A stretch of DNA of 64,000 bases from assembly GCA_964512225.1 (NCBI GenBank), contig CAZEKB010000024.1, positions 678-64,677 of the forward strand. Direction: 5' to 3'. How positions within the stretch are numbered: the first letter of the stretch is position 1; each line of letters opens with the position of its first letter. The notes beneath the pieces are model-generated. The model was not told where the DNA came from. It saw only the letters and a program-made list of their open reading frames with translations, and searched no databases. The DNA is from an uncultured Rickettsiales bacterium. GTDB lineage: Bacteria > Myxococcota_A > UBA796 > UBA9615. A program made the translations under genes and the position numbers. Below are positions 3,001 through 30,465 of the stretch, piece by piece.

Positions 3001-6000
3001 GCTTCGGCGCCAAGTCGGACTTCGTGGTGAACGTGTTCTGCCCGAGCAACCTCGTGGAGAACTGCACCAACGGCATCGACGACGACTTCGACGGGGACGT
3101 CGACTGCGCCGACACCGAGTGCTCCTGCGCGGTCACCTGCTCGGCCACGTCGACCCTGACCTGCGGGCAGCAGCTGACCGCCACCACCGTGGGCAGCCCG
3201 TCGCAGATCTCCACCTACTCCTGCGGCGTCCCGGCCACCGGGCCCGAGGAGTTCTTCACGTTCATCGGCCCGCCCGGCGGCGGCACCGTCGACTTCCAGC
3301 TCGCCAGCCTCAGCACGGCCGATCTCGACCTGTACGCCCTCGAGTCCAACGCCGGGGCCTGCGATCCCACGGTCTGCGCCGACGCGGCGACGGGCTCGGG
3401 CTCCACCGAGCTCCTGTCCCTCGCGACCACCGCCGGGACGGAGTACTTCATCGGCGTGGAGGGCTTCTCCGGCGACTCCGGCGCGTTCGTGCTCGACGTC
3501 CTCTGCCCCACCACGACGCTGGAGATCTGCGGCAACTTCATCGACGACGACGGCGACGGCGACGTGGACTGCGCCGACTCCGAGTGCTTCGGCGACGCGG
3601 GCTGCTCCGTGGAGGTCTGCGACAACAGCTTCGACGACGACGGCGACGCCCTCATCGACTGCGCCGACCCGGACTGCAGCACGGCCCCGTCCTGCGCGGT
3701 GGAGATCTGCAACGACTTCATCGACAACAACGGCGACGGGCTGACCGACTGCGCGGACGCCCAGTGCATCAACGCGACGCTGTGCATCCCCGAGGTCTGC
3801 AACAACGGCGTGGACGACGACTCCGACGGCGACACCGACTGCGACGACCTCGAGTGCGAGAACGACCCCGGCTGTCCGCCCCCCACGTGCTCGTCGGTGG
3901 TGAGCACGATCGCTTGCGGCGGCTCCGTCGTGGGGACCACGACCACGGCCGCGAACTCCCTCACGAGCTACTCCTGCGGCAACGTCAGCCCCGGGCCCGA
4001 CGTCACCTACGAGTTCACGGCGACGGCCACCCAGCTCGCCACGATCTCGCTGCAGATCGACACCCCGAACACCGACCTCGACATCGTCGTCGTATCGGAC
4101 CAGGGCAACGGCTGCGAGCCCGGCGCCTGCGACGCGTTCGCGGGCAGCACCACGCTCAACCCCGAGCTGCTCGCGTTCCCCGTCAACCAGGGCGACACCT
4201 ACTACCTGCTGGTCGAGTCGAAGCTGCCGAGCGTGTCCGGCGACTTCACGATGTCGCTGACCTGCGGCAGCACCCCCGGCACCGAGCTGTGCGGCAACGG
4301 CATCGACGACGACGGCAACGGCCTCGTCGACTGCAACGACCCGGTGTGCGCGACCAACCCCGCGTGCGTGACGCCTCCCGAGAACTGCGCCAACAACCTG
4401 GACGACGACGGCGACGGCCTCGTGGACTGCCTCGACACCGACTGCTTCGGCTCCCCGGTGTGCGTCCTGACGGAGAACTGCGCCAACGGCGTCGACGACG
4501 ACACCGACGGCCTGATCGACTGCCAGGACAGCGACTGCGTGGGCGACATCAACTGCATCGGCATCGAGAACTGCGGCGACGGCATCGACAACTCCGGCAA
4601 CGGCCTCGTCGACTGCCAGGACCCGACGTGCAACGGCACCGCCTTCTGCTCCACGGAGGTCAGCTGCACCAACGGGTTCGACGACGACGGTGACGGCGCC
4701 GTGGACTGCCTCGACACCGACTGCACCACCCAGTCCGTGTGCATCCCCGAGGTGTGCAGCAACGGCGTCGACGACGACAACGACGGCCTCGTGGACTGCA
4801 ACGACACCGAGTGCACCCTCGATCCGGCGTGCATCCCCGAGCTCTGTCAGAACGGCATCGACGACGACGGCGACGGCTTCGTCGACTGCCTCGACACCGA
4901 GTGCAGCACGCAGCCGTTCTGCATCGCCGAGATCTGCGGCAACGGCATCGACGACGACGGCGACGGCGACATCGACTGCACCGATCTCGAGTGCGCGGCC
5001 GACCCCGCCTGCATCACGGAGCTCTGCGCCAACGGCCTCGACGACGACGGCGACGGCTTCGTGGACTGCGCCGACAGCGAGTGCTTCACCGACGCGGCCT
5101 GCACCACCGAGAACTGCACGAACGGCGTGGACGACGACGGCGACGGCCTCGTCGACTGCGCCGACCCGGGCTGCTTCGGGAACATCGCGTGCGCCCTGGG
5201 CGGGACCGAGGTCTGCACCGACGGCACCGACGACGACAACGACGGGTTCATCGACTGCCTCGACCCGGACTGCTTCACCGACCCGGTGTGCATCCCCGAG
5301 AACTGCGCCAACGGGTTCGATGACGACGGCGACGGCCTCGTGGACTGCAACGATCCCGAGTGCACGACCGCCGCGGCCTGCACGCCCGAGATCTGCACGA
5401 ACGCCGTGGACGACGACGGCGACGGCCTGATCGACTGCGCGGACCCGGACTGTACCGGCGCGGGGGCGTGCACGCCCGAGAACTGCACCAACGGCATCGA
5501 CGACGACGGCGACGGCCTCGTCGACTGCTTCGATCCCGAGTGCCCGCTCGACCCGAGCTGCATCGTCGAGAACTGCACCAACGGCATCGATGACGACGGC
5601 GACGGCACCGTCGACTGCAACGACCTCGAGTGCATCAACAACATCGCCTGCGGCGAGGTCTGCACCGACAACATCGACAACGACGGCGACGGCCTCGTCG
5701 ACTGCGCGGACAACGACTGCGCGGGCAACTCGGCGTGCATCCCCGAGGTGTGCGACGACGGCCTGGACAACGACAACGACGCCTTCATCGACTGCGACGA
5801 CACCGAGTGTGTGGCCGCCGCGTACTGCACGACGTGCGTCGAGCTCCCGACGCCGGTCCTCGGCTGCACGGGCGCGGTGAGCGGCCTGAACATCGCCGCC
5901 GGCTCCACCGACGCCAACAACTCCTACACCTGCGGCGGCTGGGACGCGACGGGCAGCGAGATCGTCTACGAGTGGACGGCCACGGAGTCCGGCAACCACG

Positions 6001-9000: not shown

Positions 9001-10748
9001 TGGACCCGGCCTGCACCGGCCTCGAGAACTGCAGCAACGGCGTGGACGACGACGGCGACGGCGTCGTCGACTGCGACGACTCGGACTGCTTCCAGGACCT
9101 GTCCTGTCCGGGCGTCGCCTGCACGGTCGTCTCGACGCTGATCTGCGACACGCCCGTGGGCGGCTCGACCATCGGCCAGGCCGACGGCATCCCCCAGTAC
9201 GGCTGCCAGAACTTCGTGGCCCCGGGGCCGGACCAGGTCTACGCGTTCGTGACGCCCGCGCAGGGCACGTACGGCGTGGAGGTGACGTCCGGTTCGGGCG
9301 CGGACCTGGACCTCGCGCTGTTGTTCAACCAGGGCGCGGGCTGCGATCCGTCCTCGTGCGGGGCCATCGCCGCGACGACCCAGAACCCCGAGAGCCTGCT
9401 CTTCGGCGGCCAGGCGAACGAGGTCTTCTACTTCGGCGTCGACTCCGCCGCGGCGGGGGTGTCCGACACCTTCACCATCGAGGTGCAGTGCGCGACGATC
9501 ACCGTCGAGGACTGCGGCAACGGCATCGACGACGACGGCGACGGCCTCGTCGACTGCCTCGACCCGAACTGCGCGTCCGCCACCCCCTGCCTGCCTCCCG
9601 AGAACTGCACCAACGGGGTCGACGACGACGGCGACTTCGACATCGACTGCGCGGACTCCGACTGCTCGACGGACCCGGCGTGCGTCGTCGAGGTCTGCAA
9701 CAACGGGCAGGACGACGACGCCGACGGTCTCGTGGACTGCGACGACGCCGCGGACTGCGCGAACAGCCCCTTCTGCCAGCCCGAGCTGTGCGCCAACGGG
9801 ATCGACGACGACCTCGACGGAGACACGGACTGCGCGGACGCGGACTGCATCCTCGACATCGCCTGCGGCGCCCCCGCCCAGGAGGTCTGCACCAACGGCG
9901 TGGACGATGACGGCGATACGTACATCGACTGCGCGGACGCGGGCTGCTCCGGCGCCGCGAACTGCGCCGAGGAGGTGTGCGGGGACAACATCGACAACGA
10001 CGCCGACGGGCTCGTGGACTGCGCCGATCCCGACTGCGGCCCGGACCCCGGCTGCATCACCGGGACGTGCGCGAGCGGCACGGTGATCACGTGCCCCGCG
10101 GGCGGCGGCACCACGTCGGTCACGAATACGACCGCGGGGACGTCGGCCACGGACCACTACGCGTGCGGGCCGGGAATCTCCCAGTTCGGGCCCGAGCACG
10201 TGTACCAGTTCGCGTCCAACGGAGACGCGCTGGTGATCTCCCTGACGCACACGTCGAGCGCGAACCTCGACCTGATCGTCCTGGAGAACCCGGGCACGAC
10301 CTGCGACCCGGCGTCGTGCCTGGCGGCCTCGACCGTCTACCAGTCACCCGAGTCGCTCGTGGTCACGACGCAGCAGTTCTCGACGTACCACATCATCGTG
10401 GACGGGCCCGCGACCTACGACGCCGACACCTACACCCTCACGTGGGAGTGCAACCCGCCCGGCGCGCCGGGGTTCGAGGAGTGCACCAACACCGTCGACG
10501 ACGACGGCGACACGCTCGTGGACTGCGCGGACCCGGACTGCGCGATCTTCCCCACGTGCATCCCCGGGGAGATCTGCAACGACCAGATCGACAACGACTT
10601 CGACACGGGCATCGACTGCGGCGACGCGGACTGCGCGGCGGCCACGAACTGCACGCCGGAGGTGTGCACGAACGGCGTGGACGACGACGGGGACGGGGCC
10701 ATCGACTGCGCCGACATCGACTGCTTCGTCGCCCCCACCTGTCCCTAG
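3..10748 (+). CDS. Giant secreted Cys/Asp-rich repeat protein. 5' end truncated by the window; more than 3,580 aa in-window. Tandem ~41-aa MopE-like putative metal/Ca-binding repeats (E-x-C-x-N-G-x-DDDGDG-x-x-DC-x-D-x-x-C) interspersed with 9 pre-peptidase C-terminal (PPC) domains.
   Basis: The same reading frame is open from nt 3 (A-C-A-A-L-T-T-C-T-A-E-V-C-D-D-G-L-D-N-D-G-D-G-F-I-D-C...) with no stop until TAG at 10746-10748. The track start at 120 is just the first GTG inside the window. The repeat consensus matches the myxobacterial MopE-like motif (CNGxDDDCDG), but with G in place of the second Cys. The nine ~125-aa inserts each carry the C-x-C...Y-x-C-G...TGPE...(D/N)LDL(Y/V)...G-x-C(D/E)P...C...Y...V-x-G...C pattern typical of PPC domains. 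Confidence 0.85.
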   Translation, partial: ACAALTTCTAEVCDDGLDNDGDGFIDCGDADCATTSGCVVEICDNSADDDGDGFIDCTDSECATDPECVVEVCDDLLDNDADGAIDCADSECIADPTCIVEACNNGSDDDADGLVDCADPECATSTFCATAEICDDGLDNDGDGSTDCQDTECTWTFIPTCTSEDCTNAIDDDGDGDVDCDDLQCANAPSCALEICDNGVDDDANGLVDCLDVADCATAANCIVEICDNGIDDDGDSFIDCTDAECIAGDPACTVEICTNSVDDNGDGFVDCADPQCATETICLVEICDNGIDDNGDLFIDCADATCQIQATCQTENCINGVDDDGDGDVDCADTSCIPQAVCLATGEAGLCDNTLDDDGDYYIDCVDTECVADPVCNPEICDDGFDNDGDGLVDCTDTDCAAFAGCAVEVCDNGTDDDGDLFIDCVDPDCIAEAVCIVEICTNTVDDDGDGLVDCADSECTADPACIPEICNNGLDDDSDGDVDCLDFDCFFDAACSLETCDNGLDDDGDGLVDCDDVIDCGLFTGCIVENCGNGIDDDYDNLVDCLDPECAAAAVCIVEVCDNTIDDDGDGDADCDDSECTTNAACIVEICDNGLDDDGDGTIDCTDSECAAEPACIPELCTNTIDDDGDGFVDCADPECTGVAACTSEVCDNNADDDGDGLVDCLDPGCFGAAVCVSGGTENCTDGTDDDNDGLIDCLDPDCFQDSACLTELCADGFDNDLDGDVDCADSDCTNDPACIAEVCDNGVDDDGDGAVDCLDGDCAGSPACTPEICNNNLDDDNDGLVDCADSECLADPACATENCTNGVDDDGDGDIDCLDFDCFNTLTCGEVCDNGVDDDGDGAVDCLDTDCAQHNACITEICNDGIDNDGDGTVDCDDTECATDTYCSTCSSTGAVACGGNAASNNDDPGSTDAVDSYACGGWDATGPEMVFEYVATEAGTHFVALAGLTANLDLYIIDETAAGGACDSNQCIAFGDQSASFTAVVGNTYLLVVDGRFGAKSDFVVNVFCPSNLVENCTNGIDDDFDGDVDCADTECSCAVTCSATSTLTCGQQLTATTVGSPSQISTYSCGVPATGPEEFFTFIGPPGGGTVDFQLASLSTADLDLYALESNAGACDPTVCADAATGSGSTELLSLATTAGTEYFIGVEGFSGDSGAFVLDVLCPTTTLEICGNFIDDDGDGDVDCADSECFGDAGCSVEVCDNSFDDDGDALIDCADPDCSTAPSCAVEICNDFIDNNGDGLTDCADAQCINATLCIPEVCNNGVDDDSDGDTDCDDLECENDPGCPPPTCSSVVSTIACGGSVVGTTTTAANSLTSYSCGNVSPGPDVTYEFTATATQLATISLQIDTPNTDLDIVVVSDQGNGCEPGACDAFAGSTTLNPELLAFPVNQGDTYYLLVESKLPSVSGDFTMSLTCGSTPGTELCGNGIDDDGNGLVDCNDPVCATNPACVTPPENCANNLDDDGDGLVDCLDTDCFGSPVCVLTENCANGVDDDTDGLIDCQDSDCVGDINCIGIENCGDGIDNSGNGLVDCQDPTCNGTAFCSTEVSCTNGFDDDGDGAVDCLDTDCTTQSVCIPEVCSNGVDDDNDGLVDCNDTECTLDPACIPELCQNGIDDDGDGFVDCLDTECSTQPFCIAEICGNGIDDDGDGDIDCTDLECAADPACITELCANGLDDDGDGFVDCADSECFTDAACTTENCTNGVDDDGDGLVDCADPGCFGNIACALGGTEVCTDGTDDDNDGFIDCLDPDCFTDPVCIPENCANGFDDDGDGLVDCNDPECTTAAACTPEICTNAVDDDGDGLIDCADPDCTGAGACTPENCTNGIDDDGDGLVDCFDPECPLDPSCIVENCTNGIDDDGDGTVDCNDLECINNIACGEVCTDNIDNDGDGLVDCADNDCAGNSACIPEVCDDGLDNDNDAFIDCDDTECVAAAYCTTCVELPTPVLGCTGAVSGLNIAAGSTDANNSYTCGGWDATGSEIVYEWTATESGNHVVALSGLAANLDLYVMDDSAPGCDASSCVAFGDQSVSFTAVAGNTYYVAVDGRFGAVSAYNLLTYCPSDLVENCTDGVDNDLDGDIDCADSDCTCQVTCSTTIALSCGDSIGGTTTGAADLIDTYSCGVPATGPEVFYSFVGPAGGGNVEFQLSTTDPGADLDLYALDDNTGACDPTLCLDAATASGNSDTLILATVAGDDYAVGVEGYANTSGTYILDVVCPSTTLENCSNAIDDDGDGDIDCGDSNCFGDAACATETCDNGFDDDGDGLVDCLDPACALNLLCTPENCSDGIDNDGDGDVDCDDSECTAATFCIVENCTNLLDDDQDGAVDCADSECVADPACITGTCPAAQSTLVCPSTTTDTTTGSTDSVSGYGCLNSQLGPEVVFEYTAVATQLITAELTIITAGIDLDLVVVEDAGTGCDPLNCTTVAGATTNPDTVAFAAVAGGVYHLFVDGKTALDVGDFTLDLACGTTTTSEVCTNGLDDDNDGDIDCADSECVADPSCLVPSEICTDNIDNDGDGLVDCFDADCVGSPACALVELCADNVDNDLDNLVDCQDPDCFTDINCILVEVCTNGIDDNNNGLVDCADLSCFGGPSCQTEVSCTNAFDDDGDGDVDCLDADCGLDPACLFEVCTDGVDNDNDGLIDCVDPDCIPATNCPEICTDGVDNDGDGLIDCADGSCAGNAACTENCTDGIDNDGDGLIDCADVVDCGTNAACITAEVCDDGIDNDGDGLVDCLDTADCATAVACLAEVCNDGTDDDGDGLADCLDPDCAGDPACPATFCAIQSVIGCGSSITDATVALSEVTGYGCGNLELGGELFYRLSTAAPETVQLTLTATDPSDDFDLVVLDDSGGGCVPANCSAYSATAGNPESLVFSTVAGDTYYVGVDGFGASDFGGFQLDVVCGTPTAEICNNGVDDDGDGDVDCADANCANAAVCNQTEICNNGIDDDGDSAIDCADGDCSTDSACIVEICTGGVDDDGDGLIDCADTECVLDPACTGLENCSNGVDDDGDGVVDCDDSDCFQDLSCPGVACTVVSTLICDTPVGGSTIGQADGIPQYGCQNFVAPGPDQVYAFVTPAQGTYGVEVTSGSGADLDLALLFNQGAGCDPSSCGAIAATTQNPESLLFGGQANEVFYFGVDSAAAGVSDTFTIEVQCATITVEDCGNGIDDDGDGLVDCLDPNCASATPCLPPENCTNGVDDDGDFDIDCADSDCSTDPACVVEVCNNGQDDDADGLVDCDDAADCANSPFCQPELCANGIDDDLDGDTDCADADCILDIACGAPAQEVCTNGVDDDGDTYIDCADAGCSGAANCAEEVCGDNIDNDADGLVDCADPDCGPDPGCITGTCASGTVITCPAGGGTTSVTNTTAGTSATDHYACGPGISQFGPEHVYQFASNGDALVISLTHTSSANLDLIVLENPGTTCDPASCLAASTVYQSPESLVVTTQQFSTYHIIVDGPATYDADTYTLTWECNPPGAPGFEECTNTVDDDGDTLVDCADPDCAIFPTCIPGEICNDQIDNDFDTGIDCGDADCAAATNCTPEVCTNGVDDDGDGAIDCADIDCFVAPTCP
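1940..4275 (+). repeat. Copy 1 of a ~2.3-kb intragenic segmental duplication
   Basis: The block begins with the unique signature GCFG..V..GGTE.C-TDGTDDDNDG-.IDCLDPDCF. It is followed by about 4 repeats, a short GEVC repeat, TEC....YC.TC and three consecutive PPC domains. The same order recurs at about 5100-7430 with roughly 60-70% aa identity. Confidence 0.6.
5100..7430 (+). repeat. Copy 2 of the ~2.3-kb intragenic segmental duplication
   Basis: It reads CTTENCTNGVDDDGDGLVDCADPGCFGNIACALGGTEVCTDGTDDDNDGFIDCLDPDCF ... CVELPTPVLGCTG ... three PPC domains. This is collinear with the 1940-4275 block. Confidence 0.6.
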
Positions 10749-21776: not shown

Positions 21777-22802
21777 TCAGAGCCGGGGCTCGACGCGCAC
21801 CATCCAGGCGTCGTCGCCTTCGTCGTCGAAGTCGATCGACACCGGCAGAAACCGCTCGACCATGGTGGCGTTCGTGCGCGTGTGCAGCGACGGCTCGACC
21901 GTGCGGAAGCGTCCGCCGCCCGCCAGGGCCATGGGGATGAGGAGCTGATCGGCGAGGTACTCGTCCACGGGCACGTCGGCGGCCATCCAGGCTTTCGCCG
22001 CCTCGATCACTTCGTCGGCGACCTCTTCGGCGGGCTTGCCCTTGCGGCCCACGCCGTCGAACACGACGGTCCCGTGCTTGAAGTCCACCTGGAGGAAGAC
22101 GGCGTTGCCGGGGCCGAACGCGTCCACCTCCTCCACGGACATCCGGCTGCGCACGAGCCCCAGGGCCGCCTTGAACCGCTTCATCTCGCGGTGCCCGATG
22201 CGGGGCGACAGGTTCGCCACGACCGCCCACGCCTTCAGCGTGCGGATCGGCCCGCGTCGCAGCAGATCGACCCGCTGGAGGCCGTCGGCCGGGGGCGTGA
22301 TCGCGGCGCTGAACCGTCCGCCCCCGGCGGGCGCGAAGCCCACGCGGTCCAACGTCACGCCGACCCGCGCGCCCATTCGACGCAGCACCGCCAGGAACGA
22401 CAGCTCCAGGAAGGGGATCGGGGGAGCCCAGGGGTTGTGGGTGCCGCCCTCGAGCTCGACGGTGCTCGGCCCGTCGGCCAGCAGCAGGGCGGGGAGGATG
22501 GTCTGCAGCACGAGCGTCGTGGAGCCCGCGCTGCCGATGGAGAACCGGAAGGTCCCCCCGTGCAGGCCCGACGGCTCGAAACGCAGGCGCCCGGAGCCGA
22601 GCTCGTCGCCTTCGACGTACGCCGCGCCCACGCGCGTGGCGGCCCGCACGCACGTGAGGTGCTGGCGCATGAGCCCCGGCTTCTTCCGCCCGGCCCGGAT
22701 GTTCTCCAGGACGAACGGCGTGCCGGTGACGACGGACAGGCCCAACGCCGTGCGCAGGACCTGTCCGCCGCCTTCTCCTTCGGAGCCGTCGATGGTCAGC
22801 AT
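21777..22802 (-). CDS. rtcA: RNA 3'-terminal phosphate cyclase
   Basis: MLTIDGSEGEGGGQVLRTALGLSVVTGTPFVLENIRAGRKKPGLMRQHL...GSAGSTTLVLQT...EYLADQLLIPMALAGGG is collinear with E. coli RtcA, including the conserved H in ...RQHLT. Confidence 0.92.
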   Translation of the reverse strand: MLTIDGSEGEGGGQVLRTALGLSVVTGTPFVLENIRAGRKKPGLMRQHLTCVRAATRVGAAYVEGDELGSGRLRFEPSGLHGGTFRFSIGSAGSTTLVLQTILPALLLADGPSTVELEGGTHNPWAPPIPFLELSFLAVLRRMGARVGVTLDRVGFAPAGGGRFSAAITPPADGLQRVDLLRRGPIRTLKAWAVVANLSPRIGHREMKRFKAALGLVRSRMSVEEVDAFGPGNAVFLQVDFKHGTVVFDGVGRKGKPAEEVADEVIEAAKAWMAADVPVDEYLADQLLIPMALAGGGRFRTVEPSLHTRTNATMVERFLPVSIDFDDEGDDAWMVRVEPRL

Positions 22803-22815
22803 GTCCGACTCCAGC

Positions 22816-24387
22816 TTAGGCCGCGCTCGCCGGAGCGAGCTCGACCGCTTCGATGGCCGCGACGTGCCGCTCGGGCCCGCCGGTGCCGTTCGTGAACGCG
22901 GCCACGACGTCGAACACCGCGTCGGAGAAGCCCCCGACGTTGAGGATGTCCGTCGCCTCGGTCGCCTGGACCGTCCGGTGCGGCTGGATGTCGACGCACA
23001 CCAGCCGCGCCTTCGGGTTCCGAGCCTTGAGCTTGCGCCACTGGTCCATCGTCGCCGTGGCGCCGGATCGAGCGTCGACCCAGCTCTCGTTGTCGGAGAC
23101 GAAGACGACCGTGTCGACCTTCGCCTTCCGGCGGTTCAGCTCGGCCAGGGGCGCGCTGCAGGACGTCCCGCCGCCCCCCACGGACGCCAGCTTCTCCGCG
23201 TTCGTCATCACCGAGTCGCGCGCGTTCAGTCGAACGTCCACGACGCGGTGCTCGAACGGGAGGACGGTCGCCCGCGGGTTGTTGCGGAGGATCGCCGCCG
23301 CGAACAGGCCCGCGACGTCGACGCAGCGCACCTTCGACGTGGACCCCTTGCGGTAGCCCGTCGCCGCGCACCGCATCGAGCCGGACACGTCTGGGCAGAC
23401 GACGACGCGCCCGGGCAGGCCCGGGACGTTGTGGAGCGCGTGCTCCATCGCCGTCTGCAGCGCGTCGCGCACGACCGGAGGGACCCCCTCGCCCGCCGCC
23501 TTGTAGGCCATCAGGAGCTGGTACGGGAAGACGCGAGCGCGCCGCACCTGCCGCTCGTCGCCGAGCCGCTTCGCGATCTTCTCGGTCATCCCGTCCACCT
23601 CGAAGACGCCGTGGCGCGCGAAGGTGTTCAGGTTCATCCGCGTCGTCTGCCAGGTCGCCGTCTCTGCGATCCGCGCCCAGCCCCGTCGCCCGATGGGCAG
23701 CGAGGTGAGCATGGAGAACGGGACGTCCGGGATCGGCGCCGAGGCCGGGTCGGCCTTGAACGCCTCGAACGCCTGGAGCTCCTCGGGGAGCGCCGAGACC
23801 TCGACGTCCTTGCCGATGAGCCGCCCGTAGAGCGCCGAGCGCGTGGCGGTCTTCGGCTTCGGGTGGACCATCTTGACGATGTCCGCGAGGGACGGATCGG
23901 AGCCCATGGACGCGGCCAGGATCCGGCGATCCGAGCGCGCGTCCAGCCACTCGCGGATCAGCCGCTTCGGGCGCGTGCCGAAGGACTTCCGCCCCACGAC
24001 GCCCGAGCGCACGATCTGCACGTAGTTCCGCAGCATGCGGCCGTTGTCGACGACGCGCGGGAAGACGATCGGCAGGAGCTCGGGCGCGCGGACCGTGAGG
24101 ACCGCGACCAGGAGCGCCGGCATGTCCTTCATGTGGCCGCGCTCGCGGGCGAAGATCGCCGTCTTGGCCAGGAACTCCACCGGGACGTCGCACGCCATCT
24201 CGAGCGTCGCCTTCAGGTGGTCGGCGTCGGTCGCGTAGAAGGTCCCGTTCAGGCAGCCCGTGGCCGCGAACTGCGCCAGGGCCTCGCGGGCCGTCCGCTC
24301 GTACGCCGCCCCGCCCGCCTCGTTCCTGGTGGACGCGCGCTCGAGGAGTCGGCCGAAGTAGGAGCTGAAGAGGTTCTTGTTCGCCAT
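22816..24387 (-). CDS. rsr: Ro60-related protein Rsr (TROVE domain + C-terminal vWA/MIDAS domain)
   Basis: MANKNLFSSYFGRLL...TROVE-like N-terminal ~350 aa, then a vWA motif VVVCPDVSGSM...GGGTSCSAP. GGGAG lies 7 nt upstream of the ATG. The gene sits 13 nt upstream of rtcA on the same strand. The track ORF runs on to 25449, but the extra 354 codons are R/P junk. Confidence 0.85.
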   Translation of the reverse strand: MANKNLFSSYFGRLLERASTRNEAGGAAYERTAREALAQFAATGCLNGTFYATDADHLKATLEMACDVPVEFLAKTAIFARERGHMKDMPALLVAVLTVRAPELLPIVFPRVVDNGRMLRNYVQIVRSGVVGRKSFGTRPKRLIREWLDARSDRRILAASMGSDPSLADIVKMVHPKPKTATRSALYGRLIGKDVEVSALPEELQAFEAFKADPASAPIPDVPFSMLTSLPIGRRGWARIAETATWQTTRMNLNTFARHGVFEVDGMTEKIAKRLGDERQVRRARVFPYQLLMAYKAAGEGVPPVVRDALQTAMEHALHNVPGLPGRVVVCPDVSGSMRCAATGYRKGSTSKVRCVDVAGLFAAAILRNNPRATVLPFEHRVVDVRLNARDSVMTNAEKLASVGGGGTSCSAPLAELNRRKAKVDTVVFVSDNESWVDARSGATATMDQWRKLKARNPKARLVCVDIQPHRTVQATEATDILNVGGFSDAVFDVVAAFTNGTGGPERHVAAIEAVELAPASAA

Positions 24388-24402
24388 GTCCGGCTCCCGT
24401 TC

Positions 24403-24499
24403 GAAAGCGACGGTCGGCGAGTCTTGGTCGAGACACTTACGCGGGGTTCGAACCCGCCGTACCAGGGTGTAGTCCCGACGGCATCCGACCGTCGCTCCT
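24403..24499 (-). ncRNA. Candidate Y-RNA-like / tRNA-like element in the rsr leader, carrying a canonical T-arm
   Basis: On the minus strand: a 12-bp helix AGCGACGGUCGG (24485-24496) pairs with CCGACCGUCGCU (24406-24417). An inner 8-bp helix follows. The apical hairpin GCGGG-UUCGAAC-CCCGC (24441-24457) is a textbook tRNA T-arm with a G53-C61 closing pair and a T54-T55-C56-G57-A58 loop. It lies 16 nt upstream of the rsr ATG. Bacterial rsr loci commonly encode YrlA-type Y RNAs with tRNA-like modules. Confidence 0.35.
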
Positions 24500-24505
24500 T
24501 CTCTC

Positions 24506-24522
24506 TTCACCGGGCGTGCCAA
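24506..24522 (-). promoter_or_regulatory. Possible sigma-54 -24 element (TTGGCACG) upstream of rsr with a poor -12 (GTGAA)
   Basis: Minus strand TTGGCACGcccgGTGAA. The -24 half is perfect but GC at -12 is absent, so this is weak. Confidence 0.2.
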
Positions 24523-24553
24523 CTTCGGGAAACGCACGACGTCGGCGTGATCG

Positions 24554-24601
24554 TTCGATTCGCGGCGATCGAAAGCTATCCAACTGGCTAGTGAGCTAGC
24601 C
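24554..24601. promoter_or_regulatory. Two palindromes in the rtcR/rsr divergent region: TTCGAT-N8-ATCGAA (24554-24573) and GGCTAG-tgag-CTAGCC (24586-24601)
   Basis: Perfect inverted repeats seen in the sequence. The second ends 8 nt before the rtcR ATG. They are candidate operator / UAS sites or parts of the RNA element. Confidence 0.25.
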
Positions 24602-24609
24602 TGCTGGCC

Positions 24610-29024: not shown

Positions 29025-30293
29025 TCAGCCCTTTACGCAGACGACCTGCTTGAGGGTGTGCACGATCTCGACGAGGTCGGACTGCGCGGCCATCACCGCG
29101 TCGATGTCCTTGTACGCCGCGGGCGTCTCGTCGATCACTCCTCGGTCCTTGCGGCACTCCACCCCGGCCGTGGCCGCGCGGTGGTCCTTGAGCGTGAAGC
29201 GCTTCTTCGCCTCGGTCCGAGACATCGCCCGCCCCGCTCCGTGGGAGCAGGAGTGGAAGCTCTCGGGGTTGCCCTTGCCGCGGACGATGTAGCTCTTCGC
29301 GCCCATGCTGCCCGGGATGATGCCGAGGTCGCCCTCGCCCGCCCGGACCGCGCCCTTGCGCGTCAGCCACACCTTCTTGCCGTAGTGCACCTCCTGCTGC
29401 ACGTAGTTGTGGTGGCAGTTCACGGCCATCGCGTCGGTCGTCCACTTCTTGCGGATCAGCTTCACGCCGCGCACCGCCTTGATCACCGCCGCCATCATCA
29501 GGTTGCGGTTCTCGCGCGCGAATCGCTGCGCCCAGCCGACCGCCTGCACGTAGTCGTCGAAGTGCTCCGTGCCCTCCGTCAGGTACGCCAGGTCGCGGTG
29601 CGGCAGGTTGATGAAGAAGCGCTCCATCTCCTTCTGAGCGACGCGGATGAAGTGGCTCCCGATCCGGTTCCCGACGCCGCGGGAGCCGCTGTGCAGCATG
29701 AACCAGACACGATCCGCTTCGTCGAGGCACACCTCCACGAAGTGGTTGCCGGACCCGAGCGTCCCCAGGTGAACCCGGTGGTTCGAGCTGCGGATCCTCG
29801 GGTGCTTGTCGCAGATGACGTCGAACTCGTCGTCGAGCGTCTTCCACACCTGGTCCACCGCCTTCGGGACGCGGTCCCGCCACGACCCCTTGTCGCCGCG
29901 TCGCCCGCCGGACGTCCGCCCGTGGGGGACGGCCGCCTCGATCGCGTTGCGCACGGGGGAGAGGTCCGTGGGCAGGTCCGACGCCGTCAGCGACGTCTGG
30001 ACTGCCATCATCCCGCACCCGAGATCGACGCCGACCGCGGCCGGGATGATCGCCTTGTGCGTGGGGATGACCGAGCCGATCGTCGCGCCGCGACCGATGT
30101 GCGTATCCGGCATCGCCGCCACCCACTTGTGGATGAACGGCATCGACGCGGTCTGCTTGAGCTGCGTGATCGCGCCGCTCTCGACGGGCACGCCGCGAAC
30201 CCACGCCTTCACGACGGCGTCGCCGTTCGCGGAGTGGCGGGGCGTCTTGTAGACCTCGTAGCTGCGGGACGAATCTCGGTGGGTCGTCGTCAT
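29025..30293 (-). CDS. rtcB: RNA-splicing ligase RtcB (3'-phosphate / 5'-OH RNA ligase)
   Basis: Motifs DTHIGRGATIGSV, GSGNHFVEV, NCHHNYV and SCSHGAGRAMSR (His-GMP site). GAGGAG lies 7 nt upstream of the ATG at 30293. The track ORF adds 13 spurious codons. Confidence 0.92.
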   Translation of the reverse strand: MTTTHRDSSRSYEVYKTPRHSANGDAVVKAWVRGVPVESGAITQLKQTASMPFIHKWVAAMPDTHIGRGATIGSVIPTHKAIIPAAVGVDLGCGMMAVQTSLTASDLPTDLSPVRNAIEAAVPHGRTSGGRRGDKGSWRDRVPKAVDQVWKTLDDEFDVICDKHPRIRSSNHRVHLGTLGSGNHFVEVCLDEADRVWFMLHSGSRGVGNRIGSHFIRVAQKEMERFFINLPHRDLAYLTEGTEHFDDYVQAVGWAQRFARENRNLMMAAVIKAVRGVKLIRKKWTTDAMAVNCHHNYVQQEVHYGKKVWLTRKGAVRAGEGDLGIIPGSMGAKSYIVRGKGNPESFHSCSHGAGRAMSRTEAKKRFTLKDHRAATAGVECRKDRGVIDETPAAYKDIDAVMAAQSDLVEIVHTLKQVVCVKG

Positions 30294-30323: not shown

Positions 30324-30340
30324 TGCGAGCACCGTGCCGG
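30324..30340 (-). promoter_or_regulatory. Sigma-54 promoter for rtcB (minus strand CGGCACG-gtgc-TCGCA, GG-N10-GC)
   Basis: Matches the TGGCACG-N4-TTGCW consensus at 10 of 12 positions, with correct -24/-12 spacing, about 30 nt upstream of the rtcB ATG. This fits RtcR (a sigma-54 activator) control. Confidence 0.55.
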
Positions 30341-30403: not shown

Positions 30404-30465
30404 GGATAGAGAACTATCCGATTCACCGACCCGTTCACAATGCGTCGGGCGTTTCACCTTGAAAG
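30404..30465. promoter_or_regulatory. AT-rich regulatory island: palindrome GGATAG-agaa-CTATCC (30404-30419) plus three TTCAC direct repeats (30422, 30434, 30453)
   Basis: GC content drops markedly at 30385-30470 in an otherwise ~70% GC window. The island lies 65-140 nt upstream of the rtcB sigma-54 promoter, and is a candidate RtcR UAS and/or the promoter of the divergent lipoprotein gene. Confidence 0.3.

Follow-up and report, generated by a model that had tools for sequence, protein, structure and literature searches.

We identify an unannotated Y-RNA homologue in the 222-nt gap between the divergently oriented rtcR and rsr–rtcA genes of the window, i.e., the whole 64,000-nt stretch of DNA analyzed here, to which all positions refer. 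On the comparative evidence presented below, this element spans 91 nt (24406–24496, minus strand), has a covarying structure, and belongs to a small subclass of Y RNAs in which a T arm is the only part of the tRNA-like module to be kept. Based on its position and on the predicted promoter upstream, it is likely an Rsr-partner Y RNA that is induced through RtcR and sigma-54, transcribed as the first 91 nt of a Y–rsr–rtcA transcript, and then released.

The rsr locus

The window consists of DNA with ~70% G+C, and the genes relevant to the element are as follows:

21777–22802, minus strand: rtcA, RNA 3'-phosphate cyclase (Pfam RTC), starting 13 nt past rsr
22816–24387, minus strand: rsr, a Ro60 orthologue of 523 aa (Pfam vWA_Ro60 and TROVE)
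24394–24398, minus strand: Shine-Dalgarno-like GGGAG of rsr, predicted from the sequence, 3' of the Y helix
24610–26202, plus strand: rtcR, a sigma-54 enhancer-binding protein with an RtcR/CARF-type N-terminal domain (Pfam RtcR and Sigma54_activat)
29025–30293, minus strand: rtcB, outside the rsr–rtcA operon (62% identity in tblastn to the RtcB of the Magnetococcales locus L048)

At least 20 metagenome contigs, among them JGI 3300007512 and an ENA assembly, encode the exact Rsr protein of the window, and the intergenic DNA is identical in all four retrievable contigs that carry the identical Rsr. In a collection of 5.8 billion proteins, the nearest other Rsr is 63% identical. Since the nearest relative is this distant and the four metagenome copies are identical, there is no orthologous intergenic region with which to compare the element. 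The comparison set consisted of 80 rsr loci from species-representative genomes, with Rsr proteins 54–63% identical to that of the window.

Structure of the 91-nt element

The minimum free energy fold of 24400–24502 (minus strand; RNAfold) gives a T arm, a 12-bp helix, and an 8-bp helix. These are the structures that a first-pass annotation of this DNA had described, and both its T arm at 24441–24457 and its 12-bp helix (24485–24496 with 24406–24417) capped by an inner 8-bp helix proved exact. The parts of the element, all on the minus strand, are:

24406–24496: Y-RNA-like gene of the T-arm-only subclass, 91 nt (matched by the family model R2, see below, and by Rfam YrlA below threshold)
24485–24496: 5' strand of the terminal helix (stem 1), AGCGACGGUCGG, pairing with 24406–24417 and holding part of GUCGGAUGC
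24481–24489: Rsr-binding-type motif GUCGGAUGC, partly inside the 5' strand of stem 1
24472–24479: 5' strand of stem 2, GUCGGGAC, forming 8 bp with 24427–24434, the equivalent of the YrlA 'anticodon stem'
24468–24473: conserved (A)CUACA after the 5' strand of stem 2, YUAY being a conserved feature of YrlA
24441–24457: tRNA-type T arm GCGGG-UUCGAAC-CCCGC, with a 5-bp stem and a UUCGAAC loop
24427–24434: 3' strand of stem 2, GUCUCGAC, from the fold and the family alignment
24406–24417: 3' strand of stem 1, CCGACCGUCGCU, a 12-bp pairing with covariation in the family

The motif appears here as GUCGGAUG, with G in place of the first A (fifth motif position) and a compensatory C replacing U on the opposite strand. 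The same compensated G-C variant of the usual A-U pair is rare, occurring in four of 150 family members. Between the T arm and the 3' strand of stem 2 there is only the hexanucleotide GUAAGU, and the 91-nt element contains neither an acceptor-like hairpin nor a D arm; an L-shaped tRNA mimic can therefore not form in this RNA. On the same strand as rsr, 7 nt separate the end of the helix from the GGGAG Shine-Dalgarno, and 18 nt separate it from the rsr ATG. Only a UUU tract follows the helix at its 3' end, which is marked by no terminator or known processing site, and scans of the intergenic region for intrinsic terminators and sigma-70 promoters found nothing.

Two further structural readings were considered and set aside. 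A 3-bp UAC/GUA extension of the T arm was dropped, as it is not conserved in six relatives. A UGGU in the 5' linker could be read as a mimic of the D-loop G18–G19, but was not adopted as such because it equally matches the 'GGU(C)' of the tRNA/YrlA variable loop before the T stem.

Folding of the 103-nt core gave a z score of -2.1, with 7 of 200 shuffles equally stable, and that of the full 222-nt intergenic region gave -1.08; in GC-rich DNA, thermodynamics by itself is weak evidence for such an element. As judged from sequence comparison, the support beyond chance is provided by homology and covariation. Within the window itself, the T-loop motif GGTTCGAAYCC forms one palindromic site (i.e., once per strand) in 64 kb, compared to 0.08 expected.

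Curated models do not recover the element at their own cutoffs: no Rfam family matched the window at its gathering threshold. The best match in E-value mode was YrlA, with 25.8 bits against a gathering score of 69 (E of 0.002 in a 401-nt search); this alignment nonetheless spans the full length of the model (24408–24491, minus strand), including its AUGC, ACUAC, and 3' AA-ACU-G-CG motifs. The Rfam YrlB family (RF02565) reached 17.9 bits against a gathering score of 97. ARAGORN called no tRNA or tmRNA gene in the window, and the Rfam tRNA model gave no match to the element, even at E values up to 10.

A family of Y-like RNAs in other rsr loci

In the comparison loci, canonical YrlA passes the Rfam threshold in 7 of 15 rsr loci scanned, and a regular-expression survey of motifs in foreign rsr loci, independent of the window, revealed many further related elements and recovered the same element type as that of the window. 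A covariance model, R1, was built from 20 short elements, the window element being one of the 20 seeds, and yielded 190 matches at E ≤ 1e-3 in the 80 foreign loci, or more than two per locus on average. All of these matches share the strand of rsr, and almost all of them map to the ~1.3 kb that follow the gene. The consensus of the family opens with the terminal helix and GNCGAAUGC, continues with a second helix that ends in GGRAC, with CUACA, and with a variable apical domain, and closes with GUYUC, a CUUG internal loop, and UCGNC. Its apical domains fall into four classes: YrlA-like (T arm, acceptor hairpin, and D arm), T arm with one hairpin, YrlB-like with a small loop, and T arm only.

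Alignment with MAFFT alone misplaced the 3' strand of stem 2, and we therefore relied on covariance-model alignments and anchor-based tables. Across 150 foreign elements, stems 1 and 2 were 86.3% paired, compared to 34–57% in slid controls, with a covariation score of 0.62 compared to 0.09–0.15; because this alignment was fitted to the model, these figures lean towards the structure, the slid controls being drawn from the same alignment. Double changes were observed in 19 of the 20 pairs of the two core helices, including 7 of 8 in stem 2, which was itself 93.6% paired. For the T arm, a test anchored on the loop and G53 only, applied to 45 distinct Y-like T arms, showed the stem to be 96.9% paired (43–60% when slid), again with a covariation score of 0.62. 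Covariation had been named in the first-pass annotation as a check on its proposal, and, run on this rsr-linked Y-like family, it is seen in stems 1 and 2 as well as in the T stem.

To what extent the window element itself belongs to this family can be read from a second covariance model, R2, which was made from the 150 foreign rsr-linked elements only, without the window sequence, these elements having been recruited by R1 and hence by a model with a window seed. Searched against both strands of the 64-kb window, R2 produced a sole match, at 24406–24496 on the minus strand (51.1 bits, E of 4.9e-11). The Rfam YrlA model, which the first-pass annotation had suggested as a check, stayed below threshold, and R2, from foreign elements, finds the element. 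In addition, stem 2 of the window RNA (GUCGGGAC/GUCUCGAC) is identical to stem 2 of a short Y RNA from a Myxococcales MAG (L021:5615), and short rsr-linked hairpins of other loci have a nearly identical stem 2. Overall, the homology search and the covariation point to 24406–24496 as an unannotated homologue of Y RNAs, in line with the central proposal of the first-pass annotation, which placed a Y-RNA-like gene missing from the annotation, with a T arm and a helix of the Ro/Rsr-binding type, in the divergent rtcR–rsr gap on the strand of rsr.

Six other T-arm-only members were identified: L010:5567 from a Myxococcaceae MAG, L048:5778 from Magnetococcales, and members in the metagenomic loci L086, L100, and L107, the last with two copies. 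For the most part, a pattern scan of metagenomes for such forms picked up canonical YrlA with a chance GTCTC in the acceptor hairpin, the true ones being only those of L086, L100, and L107. In all T-arm-only members, the T stem covaries and is preceded by a common linker, UACA(Y)(C)UGGU, while stem 2 is 8 bp long and includes a conserved G-U pair, and these shared features place the RNA of the window in this small subclass. All six relatives lie downstream of rsr, and those of L086 and L107 end in U5–6 tracts. Among 47 other divergent rtcR–rsr loci, none had a Y-like match in the rsr leader, and the predicted position at the start of the rsr–rtcA transcript is thus an unusual feature of the window Y RNA.

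A predicted sigma-54 promoter and a candidate RtcR enhancer

Upstream of the element, pattern searches and a comparison with the promoter region of rtcB delineated the following features:

24506–24522, minus strand: sigma-54-type promoter TTGGCACGcccgGTGAA, TGGCACG-N4-GTGA, with its GG at 24520/24519
24533–24552, minus strand: conserved promoter-proximal block GATCACGCCGACGTCGTGCG, common to the rsr and rtcB promoters in the form GATC(A)CGC-CGACGTCG-YGCG
24586–24601, both strands: 16-bp palindrome GGCTAG-CTCA-CTAGCC, a probable RtcR enhancer (UAS)
30324–30339, minus strand: sigma-54-like promoter of rtcB, CGGCACGgtgcTCGCA, from sequence and pattern search
30404–30419, upstream of rtcB: palindrome GGATAG-TTCT-CTATCC, from pattern search

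The pattern TGGCACG-N4-KTGM has one match in 64 kb, the window promoter, compared to 0.16 expected. Its -24 half is perfect (TGGCACG), while its -12 half is poor (GTGA as opposed to TTGC); most of the 47 divergent rtcR–rsr loci have TGGCACG-N4-TTGC, -TTGA, or -TTGT, 46–80 nt before the rsr ATG. Taking the GG as -25/-24 and applying the canonical -24/-12 spacing, transcription is predicted to start at ~24495, i.e., at one of the first two bases of the Y helix, A24496 being the first. The predicted leader would therefore be ~108 nt long, 91 nt of which are Y RNA.

The pattern GGMTAG-N4-CTAKCC occurs twice in 64 kb, once each at the rsr and rtcB promoters, and at both the palindrome lies exactly 81 nt from the -24 GG. 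The two promoter regions also align collinearly over ~105 nt, and several foreign rsr promoters have similar GGATA..TATCC palindromes 115–125 nt upstream of the GG. Since the palindrome recurs upstream of the separate rtcB promoter at an identical 81-nt spacing, it probably represents an RtcR enhancer site. We found no earlier description of this candidate enhancer sequence in the cited Y RNA and RtcR literature.

Proposed mechanism and alternative interpretations

In Salmonella, RtcR responds to damaged tRNA ends and activates sigma-54 transcription of rsr/Y/rtc operons (PMC7790460), while Y RNAs are known to be cut from rsr-linked precursors and bound by Rsr, including from positions 5' of rsr in M. 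smegmatis and D. radiodurans (PMC4201824). By analogy, RtcR of the window would bind the palindrome at 24586–24601 and switch on the sigma-54 promoter at 24506–24522. Transcription from ~24495, at the Y helix, would then produce a Y–rsr–rtcA transcript with the Y RNA as its first 91 nt, which a cleavage between 24406 and the GGGAG ribosome-binding site (24398–24394) would free. Newly made Rsr may bind this RNA via the motif of its 5' strand, and the T arm may provide TruB recognition, nuclease resistance, or a partner contact. In Deinococcus, a Y RNA tethers Rsr to PNPase (PMC4201824). Like its counterparts in Deinococcus and Salmonella, the Y RNA of the window could be the adaptor or gate of a ribonucleoprotein in which Rsr deals with damaged structured RNA.

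Alternatively, the structure could act in cis as an unreleased leader of rsr–rtcA, through Rsr or Rsr–PNPase binding beside the ribosome-binding site of its own mRNA and autoregulating translation or stability, or through transcriptional attenuation by the long helix and its UUU. Autoregulation by the leader, also raised in the first-pass annotation, is speculative. The short distances from the helix to the GGGAG and to the ATG are compatible with such a role, as are the predicted start site, which puts the element at the very 5' end of the mRNA, its placement without a counterpart among the 47 other divergent loci, and the U5–6 tracts that end the relatives in L086 and L107. However, all characterized bacterial Y RNAs are released and stable, also where the Y RNA gene precedes rsr, as in M. 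smegmatis and D. radiodurans (PMC4201824), and in six other cases the same type of RNA is found downstream of rsr, where it cannot be an rsr leader; the U tract here is also just 3 nt long, and no terminator was called. We consider a purely cis-acting leader unlikely, although this reading is compatible with the main one. The Y module may also act both in cis and in trans, by capturing new Rsr (and possibly PNPase) on its own transcript, an idea that we regard as rather speculative. If true, such a dual module would provide a built-in autoregulation or a one-to-one assembly of RNA and protein, and Y RNA release would be a regulated processing step coupling Y-RNP formation to RNA-damage signaling.

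The first-pass annotation had extended the element over the whole 222 nt as a single tRNA-like RNA, with a D arm (24575–24599) and an anticodon-like arm in addition to the T arm. The corresponding letters, AGCUCA...GUUGGAUAGCU and a UCGAU-N8-AUCGA hairpin, do exist, and the minimum free energy fold draws a hairpin at GGCUAG-CUCA-CUAGCC. Yet this hairpin is a perfect DNA palindrome that is repeated upstream of rtcB at the same 81-nt distance, and the D-arm reading further requires an ad hoc deletion of 7 nt. The would-be anticodon arm (TTCGAT-N8-ATCGAA in the DNA) is matched by no model, lacks a counterpart in the rtcB promoter, and is unsupported as RNA; together with the D-arm region, it lies upstream of the predicted start site. 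ARAGORN, Rfam (at E values up to 10), and R2 all leave 24507–24609 untouched, the z score of -1.08 for the 222-nt fold argues against one continuous structure, and in true YrlA the D arm follows the T arm on its 3' side and does not precede the Rsr-binding helix. A single 222-nt RNA is hence very improbable: the extent supported by the family model is 91 nt, and 24540–24609 appears to be promoter DNA, comprising the sigma-54 promoter and palindrome region.

Finally, the element could be a decayed tRNA gene or a chance GC-rich hairpin without function, given that stable hairpins are common in a genome of ~70% G+C and that tRNA genes flank rsr in other lineages. But it has neither acceptor stem nor anticodon arm and gave no tRNA call, and it directly adjoins rsr on the rsr strand. 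Moreover, strand-specific CGRAUGC, CUACA, GUCUC, and G(Y)CG occur in the right order and spacing, with 51 bits to the family model, which leaves hardly any room for this explanation.

Taken together, these observations favor a Y RNA that is released from the start of the RtcR-controlled transcript and acts as a partner of Rsr. Bacterial Y RNAs are known already, their function being poorly understood and few of them being detected by curated models. The RNA of the window is a true, unannotated Y RNA, in which the structural and positional variation is new while the kind of RNA is known, so that its use will be mainly to specialists and its nature is not surprising; further structural variants of bacterial Y RNAs had been expected in the literature. 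The surveyed rsr loci contain several Y RNA architectures beside rsr, all on the rsr strand, and Rfam thresholds miss among them a recurrent minimal class that keeps the T arm alone of the tRNA-like module. The recurrence of this class suggests that what is conserved as the functional core is the T arm and not the L-shaped mimic in its entirety. In one lineage, the Y RNA appears to have moved to the exact 5' end of a predicted RtcR/sigma-54 transcript, which makes the locus a simple system for studying the release of Y RNAs and their loading onto Rsr; the candidate RtcR enhancer sequence is a by-product of this analysis.

Comparison with known Y RNAs

YrlA (RF02553) is known from Salmonella Typhimurium and about 250 other species (Chen et al. 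2014, PMC4201824), and its crystal structure has been reported (bioRxiv 10.1101/312249). YrlA RNAs have been recognized by a location within ~4 kb of rsr on the same strand, GNCGAA(N0–1)G near the 5' end, and a T stem-loop (PMC4201824). On the 3' side of the T arm they also contain a D stem-loop that hardly varies, GUAGCUCA..GGUAGAGC, with an acceptor-stem-like hairpin between the arms; TruB introduces pseudouridine 55 into these RNAs, and DusA introduces dihydrouridine (PMC4201824). The RNA of the window resembles YrlA in lying beside rsr on the same strand, and in its terminal helix with a GNCGAA(N)G-type motif, here in the variant with G for the first A, followed by AUGC, its second ('anticodon-like') stem, the YUAY (CUAC) at which the variable region opens, and a tRNA-type T arm whose loop contains UUCGA; control by RtcR and sigma-54, as for YrlA in many species, is predicted here from motifs. 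It differs in having neither the acceptor-like hairpin nor the D arm, in its length of 91 nt as opposed to about 115–150 nt, and in its position upstream of rsr at the transcript start, whereas YrlA is encoded downstream, between rsr and rtcB. As two defining features of YrlA are missing, this is not YrlA proper, and the earlier assignment to a YrlA-type RNA does not hold in the strict sense, consistent with the 25.8 bits obtained against a threshold of 69.

The YrlB-type RNAs of S. Typhimurium and M. smegmatis are similar in size class (65–90 nt) and have the same two stacked helices, and YrlB of M. smegmatis is encoded 5' of rsr, processed from a precursor, and 'contains a possible T-arm' (PMC4201824). 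Most YrlB-type RNAs, however, end in a small pyrimidine-rich loop, in place of which the window RNA has a full T arm, and the Rfam YrlB family (RF02565) is Salmonella-specific. Yrn1 of D. radiodurans is likewise located upstream of rsr and stress-induced; it tethers Rsr to PNPase, and it possesses a T arm, whereas a D arm is not convincingly present. In contrast to the window RNA with its YrlA-type motifs, Yrn1 has retained the metazoan-type bulged helix on both strands, as well as an anticodon-arm-like hairpin, and it appears to have evolved independently of YrlA. At the level of the operon, the closest parallel drawn here is rsr–yrlBA–rtcBA of Salmonella (Hughes et al. 2020, PMC7790460), with its divergent rtcR, its sigma-54 promoter, and the co-transcription of rsr, Y RNA, and rtcA, which is predicted for the window as well. 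In the window, by contrast, the order is Y–rsr–rtcA with one Y RNA, and rtcB is found 4.6 kb away, with its own sigma-54-like promoter and the same upstream palindrome.

Promoter architecture of the rtc genes

In the window, rtcB lies apart from rsr–rtcA, with 4.6 kb carrying rtcR, a beta-lactamase-family gene, and a hybrid histidine kinase gene between them, and is preceded by promoter elements of its own:

29025–30293 (−), rtcB, separate from rsr–rtcA
30324–30339, sigma-54-like promoter of rtcB
30404–30419, 16-bp palindrome upstream of rtcB, the same as at the rsr promoter

The palindrome-to-promoter spacing is 81 nt at rtcB, equal to that at rsr. Judged from these sequence elements, the rtc regulon of the window is probably divided between two RtcR-type promoters. 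At the rsr side, the palindrome (24586–24601), a putative RtcR enhancer, ends just 8 nt ahead of the rtcR ATG (24610), a distance that would place it inside the DNA of the rtcR 5′ UTR and would permit negative autoregulation of rtcR. The promoter that drives rtcR must overlap, on the opposite strand, either the sigma-54 promoter of rsr or the DNA of the Y RNA.

Y-like RNAs and gene order at other rsr loci

Across 80 rsr loci from species-representative genomes (L005–L084), covariance model R1 (E ≤ 1e-3) yielded 190 Y-like matches, every one of them (190/190) on the rsr strand. These were located mainly 0–1.3 kb downstream of rsr, and the majority scored under Rfam thresholds; a single locus can carry as many as five paralogues or more. 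In a scan of 15 loci, the Rfam YrlA model identified 9 elements.

In Pyrinomonadaceae and Blastocatellia, long same-strand arrays of tRNA genes stand directly upstream of rsr (~4001), and rtcR was absent near rsr in these loci:

L007 (1–3800; 27 Rfam tRNA matches within about 4 kb), L012, L029, L044, L045, L053, L055, L073, L074, and L077, tRNA arrays on the rsr strand

In two Myxococcota loci (L010 and L038), rtcR runs towards rsr and the associated Y RNAs and is divergently oriented to an rtcA-containing cluster. The RtcR-driven operon of these loci appears to exclude rsr and the Y RNAs.

Flanking tracts and possible tRNA mimicry

Directly 5′ of the terminal helix, the window carries a purine-rich GAAGAGA(GA)AGG tract (24497–24508, −), which overlaps promoter positions −12 to +1. 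The tract also precedes both Y-like RNAs of L010, a Myxococcaceae MAG (5559–5569 and 5751–5761), which are both downstream of rsr; it may represent a processing signal common to the two loci, or a coincidence. At the other end, T-arm-only Y RNAs from two metagenome contigs have U5–6 tracts straight after the terminal helix (L086:5471–5486, −; L107:9134–9149 and 9765–9781, −), resembling intrinsic terminators within an operon, whereas the window Y RNA has UUU only.

A further Y-like subclass, with the four elements below as examples, shows the order CUACA, GGUAGAGC, anticodon-arm-like hairpin, GUUCAAA-type T arm, hairpin, and GUAGCUCAG:

L006:5938–6063
L026:6390–6527
L051:6177–6315
L033:5391–5531

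This arrangement looks like a D arm split around a near-complete tRNA body. On this split-D-arm reading, YrlA looks like a less complete tRNA mimic than the GGUAGAGC/GUAGCUCAG subclass.
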